Of a stretch of 56,320 bases of DNA, positions 5,166 to 9,680 are shown piece by piece. The first letter of the stretch is position 1. Each line of letters opens with the position of its first letter. This stretch comes from Betaproteobacteria bacterium. Its GTDB lineage: Bacteria; Pseudomonadota; Gammaproteobacteria; Burkholderiales; SG8-41. The stretch spans positions 1 through 56,320 of the forward strand of contig CANIID010000002.1 in NCBI GenBank assembly GCA_947467315.1. The letters run 5' to 3'. The translations under genes were made by a program, and so were the position numbers. The notes under the pieces were generated by a model, which had not been told where the DNA came from, ran no database searches, and was given only the letters and a program-made list of their open reading frames with translations.

Positions 5166-5198
5166 AACAAAAAAGCCCCGCAAGGGGCTTTTTGTTTT
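5166..5198. terminator. Bidirectional rho-independent terminator
   Basis: aaaaaGCCCCgcaaGGGGCtttttgtttt: a 5-bp GC stem extended by A/T pairs, with T-runs on both strands. It sits between convergent rluA (+) and the 138-aa gene (-). Confidence 0.7.
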
Positions 5199-5222: not shown

Positions 5223-5639
5223 TCACTTCTCCACCACCCCCTCCTGCTCACGCAGATTGGCATTAAGCGATAAACCGGATTCGGTGTTGGTGATTTTCTT
5301 CAACGCGCCACCCTTGCCGCCGTCGCGCAACGGCGCCATATCGACATCCACCTTGTCGCCGGGCTTGAACGACGTGCGCTTCCACACGCCGGCGCGCATG
5401 AGGTTGCCGGGGCTGGTCATTTCGAGCACCCAGGTGACGGGCTTTTCGCCTTTTTGCGCGCCTTCGACGTAAATAGCCACGTGCGGATTGGTCCAGTGCA
5501 CCTCTTTGACCACGCCCGAAATCGACACGACCTTATCGTGCATGAACATGGTGGTGGCGTGATGCGCCGCGACCGGCCAGGCTGCTGCGCCCAATCCCAG
5601 CAGCGACGTGTAAATCAGTGTCTGTTTCAATAACTTCAT
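5223..5639 (-). CDS. Small secreted protein of unknown function, predicted mature N-terminus His-His (paralog of 6734-7174)
   Basis: 138 aa. Signal peptide ...GAAAWPVAA followed by HHATTMF. Conserved VKEVHWTNPHV, EMTSPGNL, KPGDKV, APLRDG.KGGALKK. From memory it resembles proteins RefSeq labels as a DUF family with an N-terminal HH motif (unverified). Confidence 0.75.
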   Translation of the reverse strand: MKLLKQTLIYTSLLGLGAAAWPVAAHHATTMFMHDKVVSISGVVKEVHWTNPHVAIYVEGAQKGEKPVTWVLEMTSPGNLMRAGVWKRTSFKPGDKVDVDMAPLRDGGKGGALKKITNTESGLSLNANLREQEGVVEK

Positions 5640-5677
5640 GATGTCTCCTTCTTCGATGTTTATACTTCGTAACCTGT

Positions 5678-6523
5678 CTACTTGGGTGGCGTGCGGTTGC
5701 CGTACGGATCATGCGTAATCTTTTCCCACACCGGGTAACCATCCTTGTCCACCGCCGGCTTGAAGTAACCTTCCAGGCAGGTGCCTTCGACGATATCCAG
5801 CCGGCGCAGGCGCTGCCGGTAATAAATGCGCGTGGTCACCCAGGGCTTGGTCAGCACCTTGGGTGCGGTGATAGTCAATTCGTCGGCCCACACATCGGGC
5901 TTTTGCAGATACATGCGCTCCTTGATATGCATGTCGCCGCCGTTGGGGATGCCCTGCGCTTCGCTGATTGCGATGTAATTTTGCGGATGCATGGCGATGG
6001 TATCGACATTCAGATCGTCGCCTTGCCACTTGCCGATGGATTCACCGTGAAACGAGGGATCGGGATCCTCGGTGTGACCGCGGCCATCCGTATAAATGCG
6101 CCGCAGACGCGCGCTGTCGGATTCGCCGAGCATCGTGACGCGACCCGGCGAGAAAATAATCTCCATTGCGTTGTGCGTCACCAGCATCCATGCCGGCATG
6201 GATTCCGGCAAGCAATTCTGGAACAAGGGTGGCGGACGGCCCGCGCGCTCTTCGGCGTACTGCCATTCAATCACCTTGGCGGCTTTTTCGTTCCACGGCG
6301 GCGGGTTGGTTTTCATCTGCCGGTCCTGATCAGAGCGCACGTGCGTCCACACGCCGCTCCAATCCGGCAGCTTGGCGATATCGGCCCAATCCTTCGCAGT
6401 CGGCGGCGGATTAATGACGGGCTTGGCAGCGGGTTTCGCGCCCGGCGTACCTTGCGCGAACGAAACGCCCGGCAATAACGAGACGCCAAGCAGCGCCATC
6501 ACTTCACGACGAATATTACGCAT
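5678..6523 (-). CDS. Secreted protein of unknown function (paralog of 7209-8039)
   Basis: 281 aa. Signal peptide ...GVSFAQG. Conserved blocks KDWADI.KLPDWSGVW, NPPPWN.KAA, NCLPE, RVTMLGESD, YTDGRGH..DPDP.FHG.SIGKW, GIPNGGDMH, DIVEG.C.EGYF. Ends 38 nt upstream of the 138-aa gene. Confidence 0.75.
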   Translation of the reverse strand: MRNIRREVMALLGVSLLPGVSFAQGTPGAKPAAKPVINPPPTAKDWADIAKLPDWSGVWTHVRSDQDRQMKTNPPPWNEKAAKVIEWQYAEERAGRPPPLFQNCLPESMPAWMLVTHNAMEIIFSPGRVTMLGESDSARLRRIYTDGRGHTEDPDPSFHGESIGKWQGDDLNVDTIAMHPQNYIAISEAQGIPNGGDMHIKERMYLQKPDVWADELTITAPKVLTKPWVTTRIYYRQRLRRLDIVEGTCLEGYFKPAVDKDGYPVWEKITHDPYGNRTPPK

Positions 6524-6642
6524 CTTGCGTGTTCCCCCTTGAACCGTTGCTACGTTTTTTTGGCACCACCGAGAAAGTTTACCACGCTCGATTTATACCC
6601 TGTAAGGCGCGTGCCACTCAGTGCCAATGACAATAAATATTG

Positions 6643-6664
6643 TCTAAAAACAAATACTTACATT
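6643..6664 (+). repeat. AT-rich 22-nt motif, copy 3 (TCTAAAAACAAATACTTACATT)
   Basis: Same family. Lies in the 210-bp spacer between the two copies of the duplicated module. Confidence 0.6.
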
Positions 6665-6684
6665 TTTAACCCCATGCCAGTATC

Positions 6685-6710
6685 CACAAAAAAGCCCCTC
6701 GCGGGGCTTC
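6685..6710 (-). terminator. Rho-independent terminator (minus strand)
   Basis: Minus strand reads gaaGCCCCgcgaGGGGCttttttgtgg, about 25 nt downstream of the stop of the 6734-7174 gene. Confidence 0.7.
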
Positions 6711-6733
6711 TCTGCCGGATGGAAAACCGCCGC

Positions 6734-7174
6734 TTACTTGGCGGGCGCTTCCTGCTCCAGATTGGCGCGTTCCTGCGCGCGGATATCCGCCGTCAAAACT
6801 TTACCGCTATCCGCGATGGTCACTTTTTTTAGCGCGCCGCCTTTTTTTCCGTCGCGCAACGGCGCCATGGATATCTCGACTTTATCGCCGGGCTTGACCG
6901 AATTGCGCGTCCAGCCGCCGGCACGCACCAGGTTGCCGGGGCTGGTCATTTCAATCACCCACAGCGCTGCTTCCGCGCCATCCTTGCCCGCGACATCCAC
7001 GTAAATGCCGACGTGCGGATTGGTCCAATGTACTTCTTTGACGACACCGTTAATCGTCACCACCTTGGCGTGATCGAACATGGTGGTGGCGTGGTGCGCG
7101 GCCACCGGATAAGCGCTGGCAACCAAACCCAGCAGCGCGGCAATGCGAACAACTTTATTCAGTGATGATTTCAT
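6734..7174 (-). CDS. Small secreted protein of unknown function, predicted mature N-terminus His-His (paralog of 5223-5639)
   Basis: Track ORF 6734-7372 trimmed to the ATG at 7174 (MKSSLNKVVRIAALLGLVASAYPVAA|HHATTMF), which has SD AAGGAG 6 nt upstream. The longer N-terminus is Arg/Ser-rich and overlaps the upstream gene. Confidence 0.75.
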   Translation of the reverse strand: MKSSLNKVVRIAALLGLVASAYPVAAHHATTMFDHAKVVTINGVVKEVHWTNPHVGIYVDVAGKDGAEAALWVIEMTSPGNLVRAGGWTRNSVKPGDKVEISMAPLRDGKKGGALKKVTIADSGKVLTADIRAQERANLEQEAPAK

Positions 7175-7208
7175 AATGGCTCCTTGCGTTAGTGAATTCA
7201 TGTTCAAA

Positions 7209-8039
7209 CTATTTCGGCGGAATGCGGTTGCCGCCCACGTCATGCGGCTGCGGCACGAACACATGGAATCCGTCCTTGTCGAGGCGTGGCGCAAAGTAGC
7301 CTTCCGAACACACGCCTTCGACGATATCGAATTTGCGCGCGCGCTGGCGGAAATAGTAGCGCGTGGTCTCATACGGCTTGGTCAGCACATGCGGTGCGGT
7401 GATTTTCATGTAGACATGCATCACGTCTTTTTCCACCCAGATGCGCTCCTGGGTGTGCATATCGCCACCGTTGGGAATGCCGTGCGCTTCGCTCGGCGCA
7501 ATGTACACCTGCGGCAGAACGGCGATGGTGTCTATCACCAGCACGTTGCCCTCCCATTTGCCGATGGAGTGACCGTGGAAGGTCGGATCCGGATCGGGCG
7601 GGTGCCCGCGGCCATCGGTGTAAACGCGGCGCAGACGACCACCATCGGATTCGCCCAGCATGGTGACGCGGCCCGGCGTGATCAGAAATTCCAGCGCGTT
7701 ATGGCTGATCATCATCCATGACGGATGTCCTTCAGGCAGGCAGTTGACGAACAGCGGCGTTGGGCGCCCCGCTTTTAATTCGGCCTGCTGAAACTGAATA
7801 CGCGCTGCGGCCTTGGCATTCCAAGGCGGCGGATTGGTGACGTGCTGCTTGTCTTGATCGGTGATATTCGGATTCCACACGCCGCTCCAATCGGGCAGCT
7901 TGCCGATATCGGCCCAGTCTTTTGCCGTGGGCGCCGGATTGACCACCGGTTTTTCCGCAGGCTTGGTTTGCGCGAACGACACCGACGCAGCCAACCCCAC
8001 CACAGCCAACACTACAGTCAAAGTACGCTTCATATTCAT
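7209..8039 (-). CDS. Secreted protein of unknown function (paralog of 5678-6523)
   Basis: 276 aa. Signal peptide ...AASVSFAQT. Same conserved blocks as 5678-6523, and 34 nt upstream of its small partner. Confidence 0.75.
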   Translation of the reverse strand: MNMKRTLTVVLAVVGLAASVSFAQTKPAEKPVVNPAPTAKDWADIGKLPDWSGVWNPNITDQDKQHVTNPPPWNAKAAARIQFQQAELKAGRPTPLFVNCLPEGHPSWMMISHNALEFLITPGRVTMLGESDGGRLRRVYTDGRGHPPDPDPTFHGHSIGKWEGNVLVIDTIAVLPQVYIAPSEAHGIPNGGDMHTQERIWVEKDVMHVYMKITAPHVLTKPYETTRYYFRQRARKFDIVEGVCSEGYFAPRLDKDGFHVFVPQPHDVGGNRIPPK

Positions 8040-8122
8040 CTAACCCCTTCCCGGTAAATTATTATTCTCAAAATTCACGGCGGAAACATTACTCCCGGCG
8101 CAATACATTGTCCATTCCGCCG

Positions 8123-8617
8123 CTAAGTCGTGAAACCTATCCAGCGGCCAAACACCACGATACACACCCACAGCGCCAACGACATCCCACCGGCCACTTT
8201 AGCACCTTGCGGCGTGGCGCGATTTTCCGCCCCCCAGTCCTGCACGTTCCGGTTGGTAACCTTGTGAAAAAACAACATGTTACAGCCGGCCAGCACGAGG
8301 AATCCCATCTTCAACAGAAAATACGTATTGGGGCCGTAGGTGGTCGCCTTCGCGCAAAACATCAGCACGCCGGTGATCACGGCTATAGCAAACGCGACCC
8401 ACGTCAGGGGCAAGACTTCCGCAGTCAGGCGGCTGACAGCGCGCTCGCGCGAGGCCCAGCCCAGCAACCGAAGATCGACCATGACGATAGAGCCCACTAC
8501 CAGCACAATCGCCAGCACGTGGATGGATTCGAGCCATGGAAAAAGCGACTCTCCCTCGCGGATGGCGGTGGCGATGCCGAAGGATTCAAGCCATTTGTAA
8601 AACGCAGTGATATTCAT
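8123..8617 (-). CDS. Four-TM inner-membrane protein of unknown function (paralog of 8632-9129)
   Basis: 164 aa with four hydrophobic segments. Shares W(L).S......A.....P..(E/Q)..H(V/I)LAI....GS.VM..LRLLG, TG and a C-terminal SLALWV.I(V/I)..GRWI with its neighbour. Confidence 0.7.
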   Translation of the reverse strand: MNITAFYKWLESFGIATAIREGESLFPWLESIHVLAIVLVVGSIVMVDLRLLGWASRERAVSRLTAEVLPLTWVAFAIAVITGVLMFCAKATTYGPNTYFLLKMGFLVLAGCNMLFFHKVTNRNVQDWGAENRATPQGAKVAGGMSLALWVCIVVFGRWIGFTT

Positions 8618-8631
8618 AAGCTATCGCCCGG

Positions 8632-9129
8632 TTAAAAGTAGGCGATCCAGCGCCCGGCAAAGATGATGCCCACCCATAGCGCGAAAGAAACCACGGCCAC
8701 CACCCTGCCCACACCGCCCCGGCTATCCCAGTAGGCCGGGTTCTTATTCAGCGGCGCGGTGAAATACAGGGTAATCAAAACCGCGCTGATGACCATCAGC
8801 ATCTTCCACTGGAAAATCACATTTTTCAGCGCGCGCGCCGGTTCGCCGGTAATGAGAATAATGCCGCTGACCAACAGCACCGGTAACGCCCACCAGATCA
8901 CAGGGCTGAAGCGCCGCGATACCGCCGCCAACGACTGATCACGCCCCGTTACACCGAGCAGGCGCAAATTGATCATCACCATCGATCCCATCAGCGCCGC
9001 AATCGCGAGGATATGCACAGTCTGCACGGCGGGCACCACCCATGCCGCGCTTTGTATCGCCTGACTCAGCGCCGTGCTGTCGATCCACACGCAGACACTG
9101 TTTAGCCACTGCTTGAATGCCGGATTCAT
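8632..9129 (-). CDS. Four-TM inner-membrane protein of unknown function (paralog of 8123-8617)
   Basis: 165 aa with four hydrophobic segments. Has an invariant His in helix 2 (TVHILAIAALMGS) and a C-terminal GRWIAYF. Separated by 14 nt from the next gene. Confidence 0.7.
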   Translation of the reverse strand: MNPAFKQWLNSVCVWIDSTALSQAIQSAAWVVPAVQTVHILAIAALMGSMVMINLRLLGVTGRDQSLAAVSRRFSPVIWWALPVLLVSGIILITGEPARALKNVIFQWKMLMVISAVLITLYFTAPLNKNPAYWDSRGGVGRVVAVVSFALWVGIIFAGRWIAYF

Positions 9130-9152
9130 GTGCGCTCGACCGTTGGCGTTGC

Positions 9153-9680
9153 TTACTTGGCGGACTTCGCCGGTGCCGGCGCTGCGGTGGCCGCCGGTTT
9201 CGCGTCCGGCGCTGGTTCACCCACGCGAAAATCGGCATGGCAGGCTGAACACGCGTTGTAGATGAGCGCGCCCGAATCAAACAGCGTCGGCACATCCTTT
9301 TTCTCCGCGGCTTTAAGCGCGATCCCGGCCGCGTCGCTCATGCGCTTGGCCGACGCCATCCATTTTTTGTCGTCACGCGCGCGCCCCTGCATCATCAACA
9401 GATTGCCGCCCTCCACCATCGTGGCGGCGGCATTGCGCACCTTTTCCCACTCTTCGTCGGTCTTGGGCGCCTTGGCGTTTTCACCCTTCTCGGTAATGAT
9501 AATCGCGACCGACTCCCACACCACGTCGGCGGCAGGATCGATCACCCATTCCATCACCTGCTTCAGACTGAGGGTCGTGTTGTACGGCGGCGCTGCCGGA
9601 GCGGGCGCGGGAGGCGGCGGTTGATTGCAACCAGCCAGCATTAACATGCAGAGCGAAATACCAGACAAGATTGTACGCAC
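9153..9680 (-). CDS. Class-II (cytochrome c'/c556-like) c-type cytochrome, lipoprotein
   Basis: 175 aa, GTG start after SD AGAGGAA. Lipobox MLMLAGC. Predicted helical body with a single C-terminal haem motif NACSACHADFR, the class-II arrangement, followed by a Pro/Ala-rich tail. Confidence 0.7.
   Translation of the reverse strand: MRTILSGISLCMLMLAGCNQPPPPAPAPAAPPYNTTLSLKQVMEWVIDPAADVVWESVAIIITEKGENAKAPKTDEEWEKVRNAAATMVEGGNLLMMQGRARDDKKWMASAKRMSDAAGIALKAAEKKDVPTLFDSGALIYNACSACHADFRVGEPAPDAKPAATAAPAPAKSAK

Follow-up and report, generated by a model that had tools for sequence, protein, structure and literature searches.

A widespread secreted protein pair, DUF6644 membrane proteins and a class II cytochrome c form a conserved proteobacterial envelope module of new composition

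In the MsrP/MsrQ and YceI/YceJ (CybB) systems, a membrane electron carrier is encoded beside a soluble periplasmic partner, and YceI is a lipocalin-like barrel. The copper-uptake systems CopC/CopD, YcnI/YcnJ and Escherichia coli YobA-YebZ-YebY combine a periplasmic protein that carries an N-terminal His with a membrane partner that has a conserved His (PMC12362106, PMC13344008), and copper uptake by CopD/YcnJ depends on this transmembrane residue (PMC13344008). Here, we analysed a cluster of seven genes on the minus strand, at positions 5223 to 9680 of a 56,320-nt stretch of DNA (contig CANIID010000002.1, hereafter the window) from a betaproteobacterium. The cluster encodes a class II cytochrome c lipoprotein, two DUF6644 membrane proteins (M1 and M2) and two copies of a pair of secreted proteins, one of about 280 aa, which we term S (Sa and Sb), and one of about 140 aa from the DUF6152 family. 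In its list of parts this module is most like CopC/CopD-YcnI/YcnJ and in its architecture like MsrPQ or YceI/YceJ, and it is a member of none of them: the copper-uptake systems contain nothing equivalent to S or to the class II cytochrome and DUF6152 is neither CopC nor YcnI, whereas MsrP/MsrQ and YceI/YceJ have no sequence or fold relation to the module and offer no counterpart for its additional cytochrome c and DUF6152 protein. All seven genes proposed in an earlier, sequence-only reading of the window were found. That reading could assign four of the five protein types to no characterised family and put the cluster forward as a candidate for an undescribed system; our searches agree with it on both points, as Pfam, NCBIfam and the PDB returned only DUF6644 and DUF6152 for these proteins, nothing for S, and no characterised family of unrelated function for any member. 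Since our literature search retrieved no paper mentioning DUF6152 or DUF6644, and S lacks a Pfam model, a solved structure and any publication, we rate the system as categorically new in its composition. As to its role, we tentatively favour, with somewhat less than even confidence, a periplasmic metalloprotein pair tied to the respiratory chain via the cytochrome and a CopD/HemJ-like membrane heterodimer.

The gene order of the module is conserved far beyond the window. A survey based on S (one genome per species, 299 relatives, of which the best 80 loci were examined) revealed the order DUF6644-DUF6644-S-DUF6152 on one strand in about 70 of the 80 loci, the others being cut by contig ends. 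The hosts comprise Polynucleobacter, Limnohabitans and other Burkholderiales as well as Bradyrhizobium, Pseudolabrys and other Alphaproteobacteria, and a metagenome-assembled genome (MAG) of the Nitrosomonadales carries the module with an S protein that is 89% identical. The module also occurs on sphingomonad megaplasmids and in soil and freshwater metagenomes. When metagenome loci were collected from M1, the M2, S and DUF6152 genes were present in all 36 loci with enough downstream sequence (32 by a strict automatic test and four by inspection), and wherever a locus extends far enough, M2 lies directly after M1. Most loci also have a class II cytochrome c at the flank of the module. Among 54 metagenome loci, 35 have the gene for the lipoprotein form immediately upstream, and of the 80 genome loci roughly 30 have it no more than about 3 kb from the core; a divergent soluble homologue follows directly downstream of DUF6152 in alphaproteobacterial (Bradyrhizobium-type) loci. 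A Novosphingobium megaplasmid has a class I cytochrome c, unrelated to these, next to the module. According to a Pfam census of 143 flanking open reading frames (ORFs) from 89 loci, the only recurrent families are Bug/TctC, which represents genome background, and Cytochrom_C_2; clustering of the flanking ORFs likewise revealed no conserved neighbours beyond the module except these background Bug/TctC proteins and class II cytochromes. The cytochrome, the 4-transmembrane (4-TM) proteins and the secreted pair travel together, a point that the sequence-only reading had proposed to check, and their order is kept whether the search starts from S or from DUF6644. A chance adjacency of unrelated envelope genes can practically be dismissed, since well over 100 independent loci, taken from two proteobacterial classes as well as soil and freshwater metagenomes, show the same order, and since S and DUF6152 stay adjacent even at 30–40% identity. 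Three MAG contigs labelled Sediminibacterium, Streptomyces and Chitinophaga (L017, L044 and L050) carry modules that are 62–68% identical to betaproteobacterial ones; they are probably mis-binned, rather than products of wide horizontal transfer.

Comparison with distant relatives separates a core from its additions. In ten distant loci, where S is only 30–40% identical and some of which bear the source-record names Steroidobacteraceae, Acidobacteria, Gammaproteobacteria, sphingomonads or Croceibacterium, DUF6152 adjoins S without exception, and DUF6644 is absent from nine of the ten. On the evidence of these sequences, the deepest conserved core is the secreted pair S–DUF6152 alone, and its occurrence without DUF6644 indicates a periplasmic rather than a transport function. 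The S and DUF6152 genes of other loci often overlap by 4 nt, and several homologues of 450–560 aa (P0138, P0166, P0184, P0185, P0237, P0264 and P0269) are tandem fusions of two S domains. The frequent overlaps and the fusions together suggest a stoichiometric S–DUF6152 complex, and there are hints that S may act as a dimer, which could explain why two S paralogues are frequently retained. One distant locus has DUF6644 genes together with a class II cytochrome and a GSDH dehydrogenase of the pyrroloquinoline quinone (PQQ) type, and the sequences suggest that the DUF6644 pair and the cytochrome can also serve other periplasmic dehydrogenases. At this locus, that of P0285, an unknown 461-aa protein is followed by DUF6152, DUF6644, DUF6644, the GSDH sugar dehydrogenase, the class II cytochrome, S and DUF6152, with a GMC oxidoreductase gene nearby.

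The DUF6152 proteins carry a very strictly conserved feature that may bear on function. The first (6734–7174, minus strand, 146 aa) and the second (5223–5639, minus strand, 138 aa) match the Pfam family with E = 5.5e-31 (107 bits) and E = 1.4e-25 (89.6 bits), respectively, against a cut-off of 27 bits. For the first protein we place the start at the ATG at 7174, instead of using the ORF-list frame of 6734–7372, because a ribosome-binding site and a signal peptide are found there. In 151 of 152 DUF6152 sequences, H-H-[SA]-x-x-M-F comes right after a signal-peptidase I site ([VAST]-x-A↓), and the distance from the H-H motif to a W-x-N-P-H motif is fixed at 23 residues. As the canonical site directly precedes H-H, the mature protein is predicted to begin with His-His. 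Among 86 sequences, the invariant residues of the first protein comprise His27-His28 (the predicted mature start), M32, W50, N52, P53 and H54 as well as W72, E75, R84, W88, R107 and R132, and the second protein has the same A↓HH N-terminus and WTNPH motif. Both H28 and H54, being invariant, are candidate partners of the N-terminal His in a metal site.

Cleavage that exposes an N-terminal His is known from the ‘signal strapping’ proteins (DUF4198, DUF6702, anglerases) and from brace proteins such as LPMO and CopC (PMC12537917, PMC10952591). Such a His binds Ni, Cu or Zn whatever the protein fold (PMC12537917), and a second His completes the copper histidine brace (PMC10952591). However, DUF6152 is not among the families described so far, always has a second His and always comes with an S partner; moreover, more than 99% of its sequences keep the N-terminal His, compared with the 65–79% reported for DUF6702 and DUF4198. 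Regarding the fold, DUF6152 is similar in size and beta-strand pattern to CusF, an OB-fold Cu(I)/Ag(I) chaperone. The NCBIfam CusF model gave E = 0.05, and hhalign against a CusF sequence reported a probability of 37% over 81 columns, pairing W72/E-M-T of DUF6152 with W-P-E-M-T-M of CusF. An OB fold is therefore plausible on sequence grounds, although the Met ligands of CusF are not conserved in DUF6152, whose conserved site is instead the N-terminal His-His plus H54, and no CusCBA pump accompanies it. A search of the PDB with the DUF6152 family profile returned no CusF and nothing else meaningful. We also considered a relationship with YobA/CopC and rejected it, as hhalign against E. coli YobA aligned the cleavage site only.

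The same histidines lend themselves to the main rival of our reading, a metal capture and import system of the CopC/CopD or YcnI/YcnJ kind. Here, the His-His of DUF6152 would catch the metal (Cu(II) being likeliest, Ni and Fe possible), the cytochrome would reduce it before transport, the DUF6644 pair would form an eight-helix CopD-like importer that uses its membrane His, and S would be accessory. Besides the invariance of the N-terminal His and the weak CusF-like signals of DUF6152, it is in favour of import that copper uptake by CopC/YcnJ requires a histidine brace and a conserved His of the CopD domain (PMC12362106, PMC13344008). In addition, some N-terminal-His proteins have their genes close to TonB receptors or are joined to small permeases (PMC12537917), and TonB-dependent receptors adjoin the module in Sphingobium, Novosphingobium and Croceibacterium. 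However, no metal-uptake system has anything that corresponds to S, which is the largest component of the module and the most conserved. No copper regulator lies near the module, and the flank census of close loci contained no copper-homeostasis genes and no gene for a metal-responsive regulator, an efflux pump or a cuproenzyme; an Rfam search found neither a riboswitch nor any other RNA family. It would also be unusual if a trace-metal importer came with several S–DUF6152 pairs per replicon, yet two are present in the window and tblastn matches were obtained at five places on one Novosphingobium plasmid.

The membrane proteins speak on both sides of this question. M1 (8632–9129, minus strand, 165 aa) and M2 (8123–8617, minus strand, 164 aa) were described from sequence as paralogous 4-TM proteins with an invariant His, and this description holds: both belong to DUF6644 (E = 4.7e-12 and 46.8 bits for M1, E = 8.3e-11 and 42.7 bits for M2, cut-off 27 bits) and they are 28% identical. 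Four TM helices are assigned to each, which for M1 the hydropathy profile supports. Invariant residues are H39, E96, P97, R99, K109 and G159-R-W-I-A-Y in M1 (72 sequences) and E21, E30, H33, D48, W73, Y94, K103, N113 and G157-R158 in M2 (74 sequences). The two paralogues share one His where TM1 begins, one Lys within TM3 and a Gly-Arg at the end of TM4, the latter being followed by Trp in all M1 and most M2 sequences. The charge distribution favours an N-out/C-out topology, so that the conserved residues are predicted to lie on the periplasmic side. We searched for fusions of M1 with M2 and found none.

With two 4-TM proteins the module reaches the eight helices of CopD, and M1 matches CopD (PF05425) weakly, at 19.2 bits and thus below the gathering score of 32.1, as well as DUF2214. 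All 40 DUF6644 relatives that were scanned match DUF6644, and sub-threshold cross-matches were observed to DUF2214 in 19, to CopD in ten and to HemJ/UPF0093 in three of the 40 (best E 0.027). A comparison with E. coli YebZ by hhalign was not significant (0.25% probability); it did not establish an alignment of the His with H295 of YcnJ, and both paralogues have their invariant His at the start of TM1. The only stretch paired was the W…G-R-W at the TM4 end of DUF6644 with LWCMQLIKGRW of YebZ (the yebZ gene being L173 8720–9592), and this stretch may be a common superfamily motif. Judged by the sub-threshold Pfam score and the YebZ comparison, DUF6644 is not a member of CopD. The failed membership tests, and the lack of DUF6644 in most of the distant S–DUF6152 pairs, count against metal import, which we consider rather unlikely, albeit the alternative that deserves most attention.

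HemJ (PgdH2, UPF0093; protoporphyrinogen dehydrogenase) offers a different comparison, as it is a dimeric 4-TM protein with b haem (PMC13564367) that is likewise small and has a conserved His in its first helix. The module, however, has two distinct paralogues instead of a homodimer, and its genomic context is unrelated to tetrapyrrole synthesis. Membership in HemJ/UPF0093 was rejected in view of the only three weak matches. Likewise, PuuD, a urate oxidase whose membrane domain is fused to cytochrome c, was set aside as an analogue, since this domain belongs to DUF989 and no link to DUF6644 was seen; it remains a loose precedent only. PDB sequence searches with DUF6644 gave nothing meaningful, and the literature on DUF2214, CopD and HemJ provided nothing useful.

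The first gene of the cluster (9153–9680, minus strand, 175 aa) encodes the only component of the module that can be assigned to a known class. Its product had been read as a lipoprotein c-type cytochrome with a single C-terminal CSACH site, and our analysis agrees. A lipobox, LAGC, with Cys18 at the end of the signal peptide conforms to the lipoprotein pattern [LVI][ASTVI][GAS]C and precedes a Pro/Ala-rich linker, and the one CSACH (C144, C147, H148) lies 27 residues from the C-terminus and contains the sole His of the whole protein. M43, C144, C147 and H148 are invariant in 32 of 32 sequences and C18 is present in 31 of 32 (beta-type), and the lipobox Cys is absent from the alpha-type homologues. 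The match to Pfam Cytochrom_C_2 is weak (E = 0.004, 18.5 bits, below the 26.5-bit gathering score) and the single sequence retrieved nothing meaningful from the PDB. A profile of 24 family members matches cytochromes c', c-556 and b562 in the PDB at E values of 1e-4 to 1e-2, and six class II cytochrome ORFs that flank the module in related loci match Cytochrom_C_2 strongly (best E 5e-16). On these sequence criteria, the protein is a class II cytochrome c of the four-helix-bundle type. In low-spin c-556, an upstream Met is a ligand of a Met/His haem; by analogy, the invariant Met43, about 100 residues before the haem site, suggests a low-spin Met/His haem here as well. Like the class II cytochromes c (c' and c-556; b562 shares the fold), the window protein has its CxxCH near the C-terminus, but it is lipid-anchored via a Pro/Ala linker, scores below the Pfam threshold and belongs to a dedicated subfamily that travels with the module.

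The two S proteins, Sa (7209–8039, minus strand, 276 aa) and Sb (5678–6523, minus strand, 281 aa), are 64% identical, and Sb keeps the invariant residues of the family; together with the assignment of both small proteins to DUF6152, this bears out the earlier description of two copies of one secreted pair. The label His-rich, which had been attached to these periplasmic proteins, stands less well, as His accounts for only 4.3%, 2.5% and 3.4–3.6% of residues and most His of the 280-aa proteins are not conserved across the family. Neither the window proteins (Pfam and NCBIfam) nor ten distant members (Pfam) matched any model, and two S family profiles gave no significant sequence match in the PDB; a hit to the lectin BP39L was discarded because it reflects a short repeated motif and not homology. 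The family is large: 2616 homologues were retrieved, and at 50% identity its members fall into 8026 clusters if E ≤ 1e-3 is required and into 2806 at E ≤ 1e-10. W55, C100, M109, E130, R137, S158, W162, E198, E241 and C244 are invariant family-wide, and the Cys pair probably forms a disulfide. With 60–70% identity between Alpha- and Betaproteobacteria and many invariant charged residues, S looks, from its conservation, like a constrained enzyme or complex subunit.

An AlphaFold2 model of S built from 87 diverse homologues (pLDDT 85.4, pTM 0.79) replaced an earlier one from 20 close homologues, which was poor (pLDDT 60) and gave no significant Foldseek matches. The new model shows N-terminal helices followed by an up-and-down beta-barrel of nine consecutive antiparallel strands, and its best Foldseek matches are weak ones to calycins, namely FABP4, CRABP2, tardigrade SAHS proteins and avidins (E 1.3e-3 to 1e-2; TM-score 0.5–0.6 on the target and only 0.3 on the query). 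YceI is absent from the top 50 matches. In comparison with the calycin barrels, S is twice as large, has a helical N-terminal half, lacks sequence similarity and conserves quite a different set of residues.

Since the best matches are fatty-acid-, retinoic-acid- and biotin-binding barrels, S could instead be a FABP-like carrier that moves a small lipophilic or carboxylate ligand, for example a lipid, a quinone, an aromatic acid or an organosulfur compound, between outer-membrane receptors and membrane proteins, with DUF6152 as a lid or adaptor. The conserved strand R137-R138-x-Y140 recalls the Arg-x-Tyr clamp by which FABPs hold carboxylates, and serves as a lead only. Some loci adjoin TonB receptors, CBM9/DUF5916 outer-membrane proteins or aromatic and organosulfur catabolic genes, and the expansion of S paralogues would suit varied ligands. 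A ligand carrier, however, leaves the invariant N-terminal His-His of DUF6152 and the recurrent cytochromes unexplained, and in addition to the weakness of the fold match, the neighbouring genes are not conserved. We therefore regard it as distinctly improbable.

The metalloprotein pair tied to the respiratory chain remains the reading that we favour. The earlier proposal of a periplasmic redox or metal-handling system finds support in the recurrent flanking c-type cytochromes, the invariant His-His of DUF6152 and the weak cross-matches of DUF6644 to CopD, DUF2214 and HemJ; from sequence, we infer that a metal is bound, that the membrane pair holds haem b, that the proteins form a complex and which way the electrons flow. 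The core would be a translationally coupled pair of the beta-barrel protein S and the small, probably OB-fold DUF6152, which could associate in the periplasm into a complex that has a mononuclear metal site, most likely for copper, the free N-terminal His of DUF6152 being suited as a natural chelator of transition metals. In the clade of the window, the M1/M2 heterodimer is added, of which each subunit would contribute one invariant His, one Lys and the Gly-Arg on the periplasmic side; the heterodimer may hold haem b, as HemJ does, or a metal ion, as in CopD, and contact the quinone pool. The putative low-spin Met/His class II cytochrome, which appears to be lipid-anchored in Betaproteobacteria, would carry single electrons between the membrane site and S–DUF6152. 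Either a periplasmic compound might be oxidised and its electrons passed to the quinone pool, or an oxidant or metal might be reduced with electrons from quinol. In its most specific form, S–DUF6152 would represent a new and widespread class of periplasmic mononuclear-metal enzymes, in which a histidine-brace-like centre on an OB-fold subunit is docked on a beta-barrel and supplied by its own class II cytochrome and a haem-b CopD/HemJ-like heterodimer that connects it to the quinone pool. We consider this version a speculative and, on balance, unlikely one.

Several observations weigh against the redox reading. Electron transfer across the membrane cannot be explained solely by one haem that sits near one of its faces, and about one third of the loci lack a cytochrome gene within reach, e.g. 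L012, L018 and L030 of Polynucleobacter. S has no conserved His or Cys motif besides its one Cys pair and thus no obvious redox centre of its own, and its fold matches, weak as they are at E values of about 1e-3, are to ligand-binding calycins such as FABP and avidin and not to enzymes. Finally, the similarity between DUF6152 and CusF is only 37% probable, and the likeness of DUF6644 to CopD and HemJ stays below the Pfam thresholds and is not significant against YebZ.

Along the seven genes, from the cytochrome to the last DUF6152 gene, the intergenic gaps are 23, 14, 83, 34, 210 and 38 nt. Gaps of 14–83 nt interrupted by one internal terminator, as previously noted, are therefore confirmed, but a single seven-gene unit is not, as the conserved unit comprises five genes. 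A terminator-like hairpin, GCCCC-GCGA-GGGGC followed by T6 (6688–6707, minus strand), was recognised by eye inside the 210-nt gap, is not listed by the consensus scan, and is nearly identical to a second one beyond the last gene, GCCCC-TTGC-GGGGC followed by T6 (5169–5188, minus strand), which was read from the sequence. Because hairpins end both units, we divide the cluster into a five-gene unit and a duplicated two-gene unit. The terminator seems to have been copied along with the secreted pair, since nearly identical hairpins follow both DUF6152 genes. An AT-rich spacer (6524–6687, minus strand) lies 5′ of the second S–DUF6152 pair and presumably holds its own promoter. A second pair is also present in the nearest relatives of the window, and in a tree Sb falls into a sub-clade with the second copies of L002, L004, L006, L008 and L108; the window’s second secreted pair is a lineage-specific duplicate with its own terminator. 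Double pairs arose differently in sphingomonads and in L134-type loci, and the tree indicates that duplications of S–DUF6152 are both old and more recent.

Searches for regulatory sequences gave little. The AT-rich spacer contains a perfect palindrome, GACAATA-TT-TATTGTC (6629–6644), which occurs only once in the window, where chance would give 0.19 matches, and is missing from related loci; it may serve as an operator specific to this strain, or may be meaningless. A promoter scan gave nothing above chance, and an alignment of the upstream regions of close relatives revealed no common motif. The GC content of the cluster is the same as that of its flanks. The neighbouring genes in the window look unrelated, encoding a Bug/TctC receptor, a GFA protein, a pseudouridine synthase, a CN-hydrolase, an isocitrate/isopropylmalate-type dehydrogenase and a Gfo/Idh/MocA oxidoreductase. 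Long antisense ORFs on the plus strand at 5711–6478, 7143–7721 and 8108–8635 are typical of GC-rich DNA and are unsupported as genes.

Some of the more distant loci stand in unusual contexts. At the inspected distant and sphingomonad loci, redox enzymes are frequent neighbours, including a GMC oxidoreductase, peroxiredoxin or glutathione peroxidase, and monooxygenases. Two sphingomonad plasmids, one of Sphingobium (AP027331.1, locus L087) and one of Novosphingobium (NZ_CP117882.1, locus L169), carry the order S-DUF6152-S-DUF6152 with a convergent DUF6644 pair, surrounded by TonB-dependent receptors and luciferase-like monooxygenases. The Sphingobium locus also has TauD, a sulfonate-binding protein and a peroxiredoxin, and the Novosphingobium locus a cysteine-dioxygenase-like gene. 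This setting, absent from other lineages, is reminiscent of organosulfur or sulfur-starvation metabolism; we rejected an organosulfur link as a general explanation, as it is confined to these two loci and finds no support in the beta- and alphaproteobacterial flank census. At two further loci (L170 and L171), S–DUF6152 adjoins genes for glutathione peroxidase and disulfide-isomerase-like proteins, in the former also a bacterial globin gene. Together with the peroxiredoxin of the Sphingobium plasmid, these loci provide a faint link to oxidative stress.

Overall, our comparison revealed a compact and self-contained five-gene unit that is present in the cultivable genera Polynucleobacter, Bradyrhizobium, Sphingobium and Novosphingobium and can thus be tested by genetics and biochemistry. 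The S family is very large and is found in soil and freshwater Proteobacteria and, according to record names, in Acidobacteria. The N-terminal His motif of DUF6152 is among the most strictly conserved so far, which makes the family a prime candidate for a new class of metalloproteins at a time when N-terminal-His proteins such as LPMOs, CopC, YcnI and the ‘anglerases’ are reshaping copper and nickel biology. Moreover, the module could provide the first functional handle on DUF6644 and bears on the question of whether CopD-like 4-TM proteins act as transporters or as redox proteins. The size of the S family and the near-perfect conservation of the N-terminal His-His of DUF6152 make the module a strong experimental target, and if S–DUF6152 should prove to be a class of metal enzymes with its own electron supply, it would represent a branch of respiratory or envelope redox chemistry that has so far gone unnoticed in bacteria.

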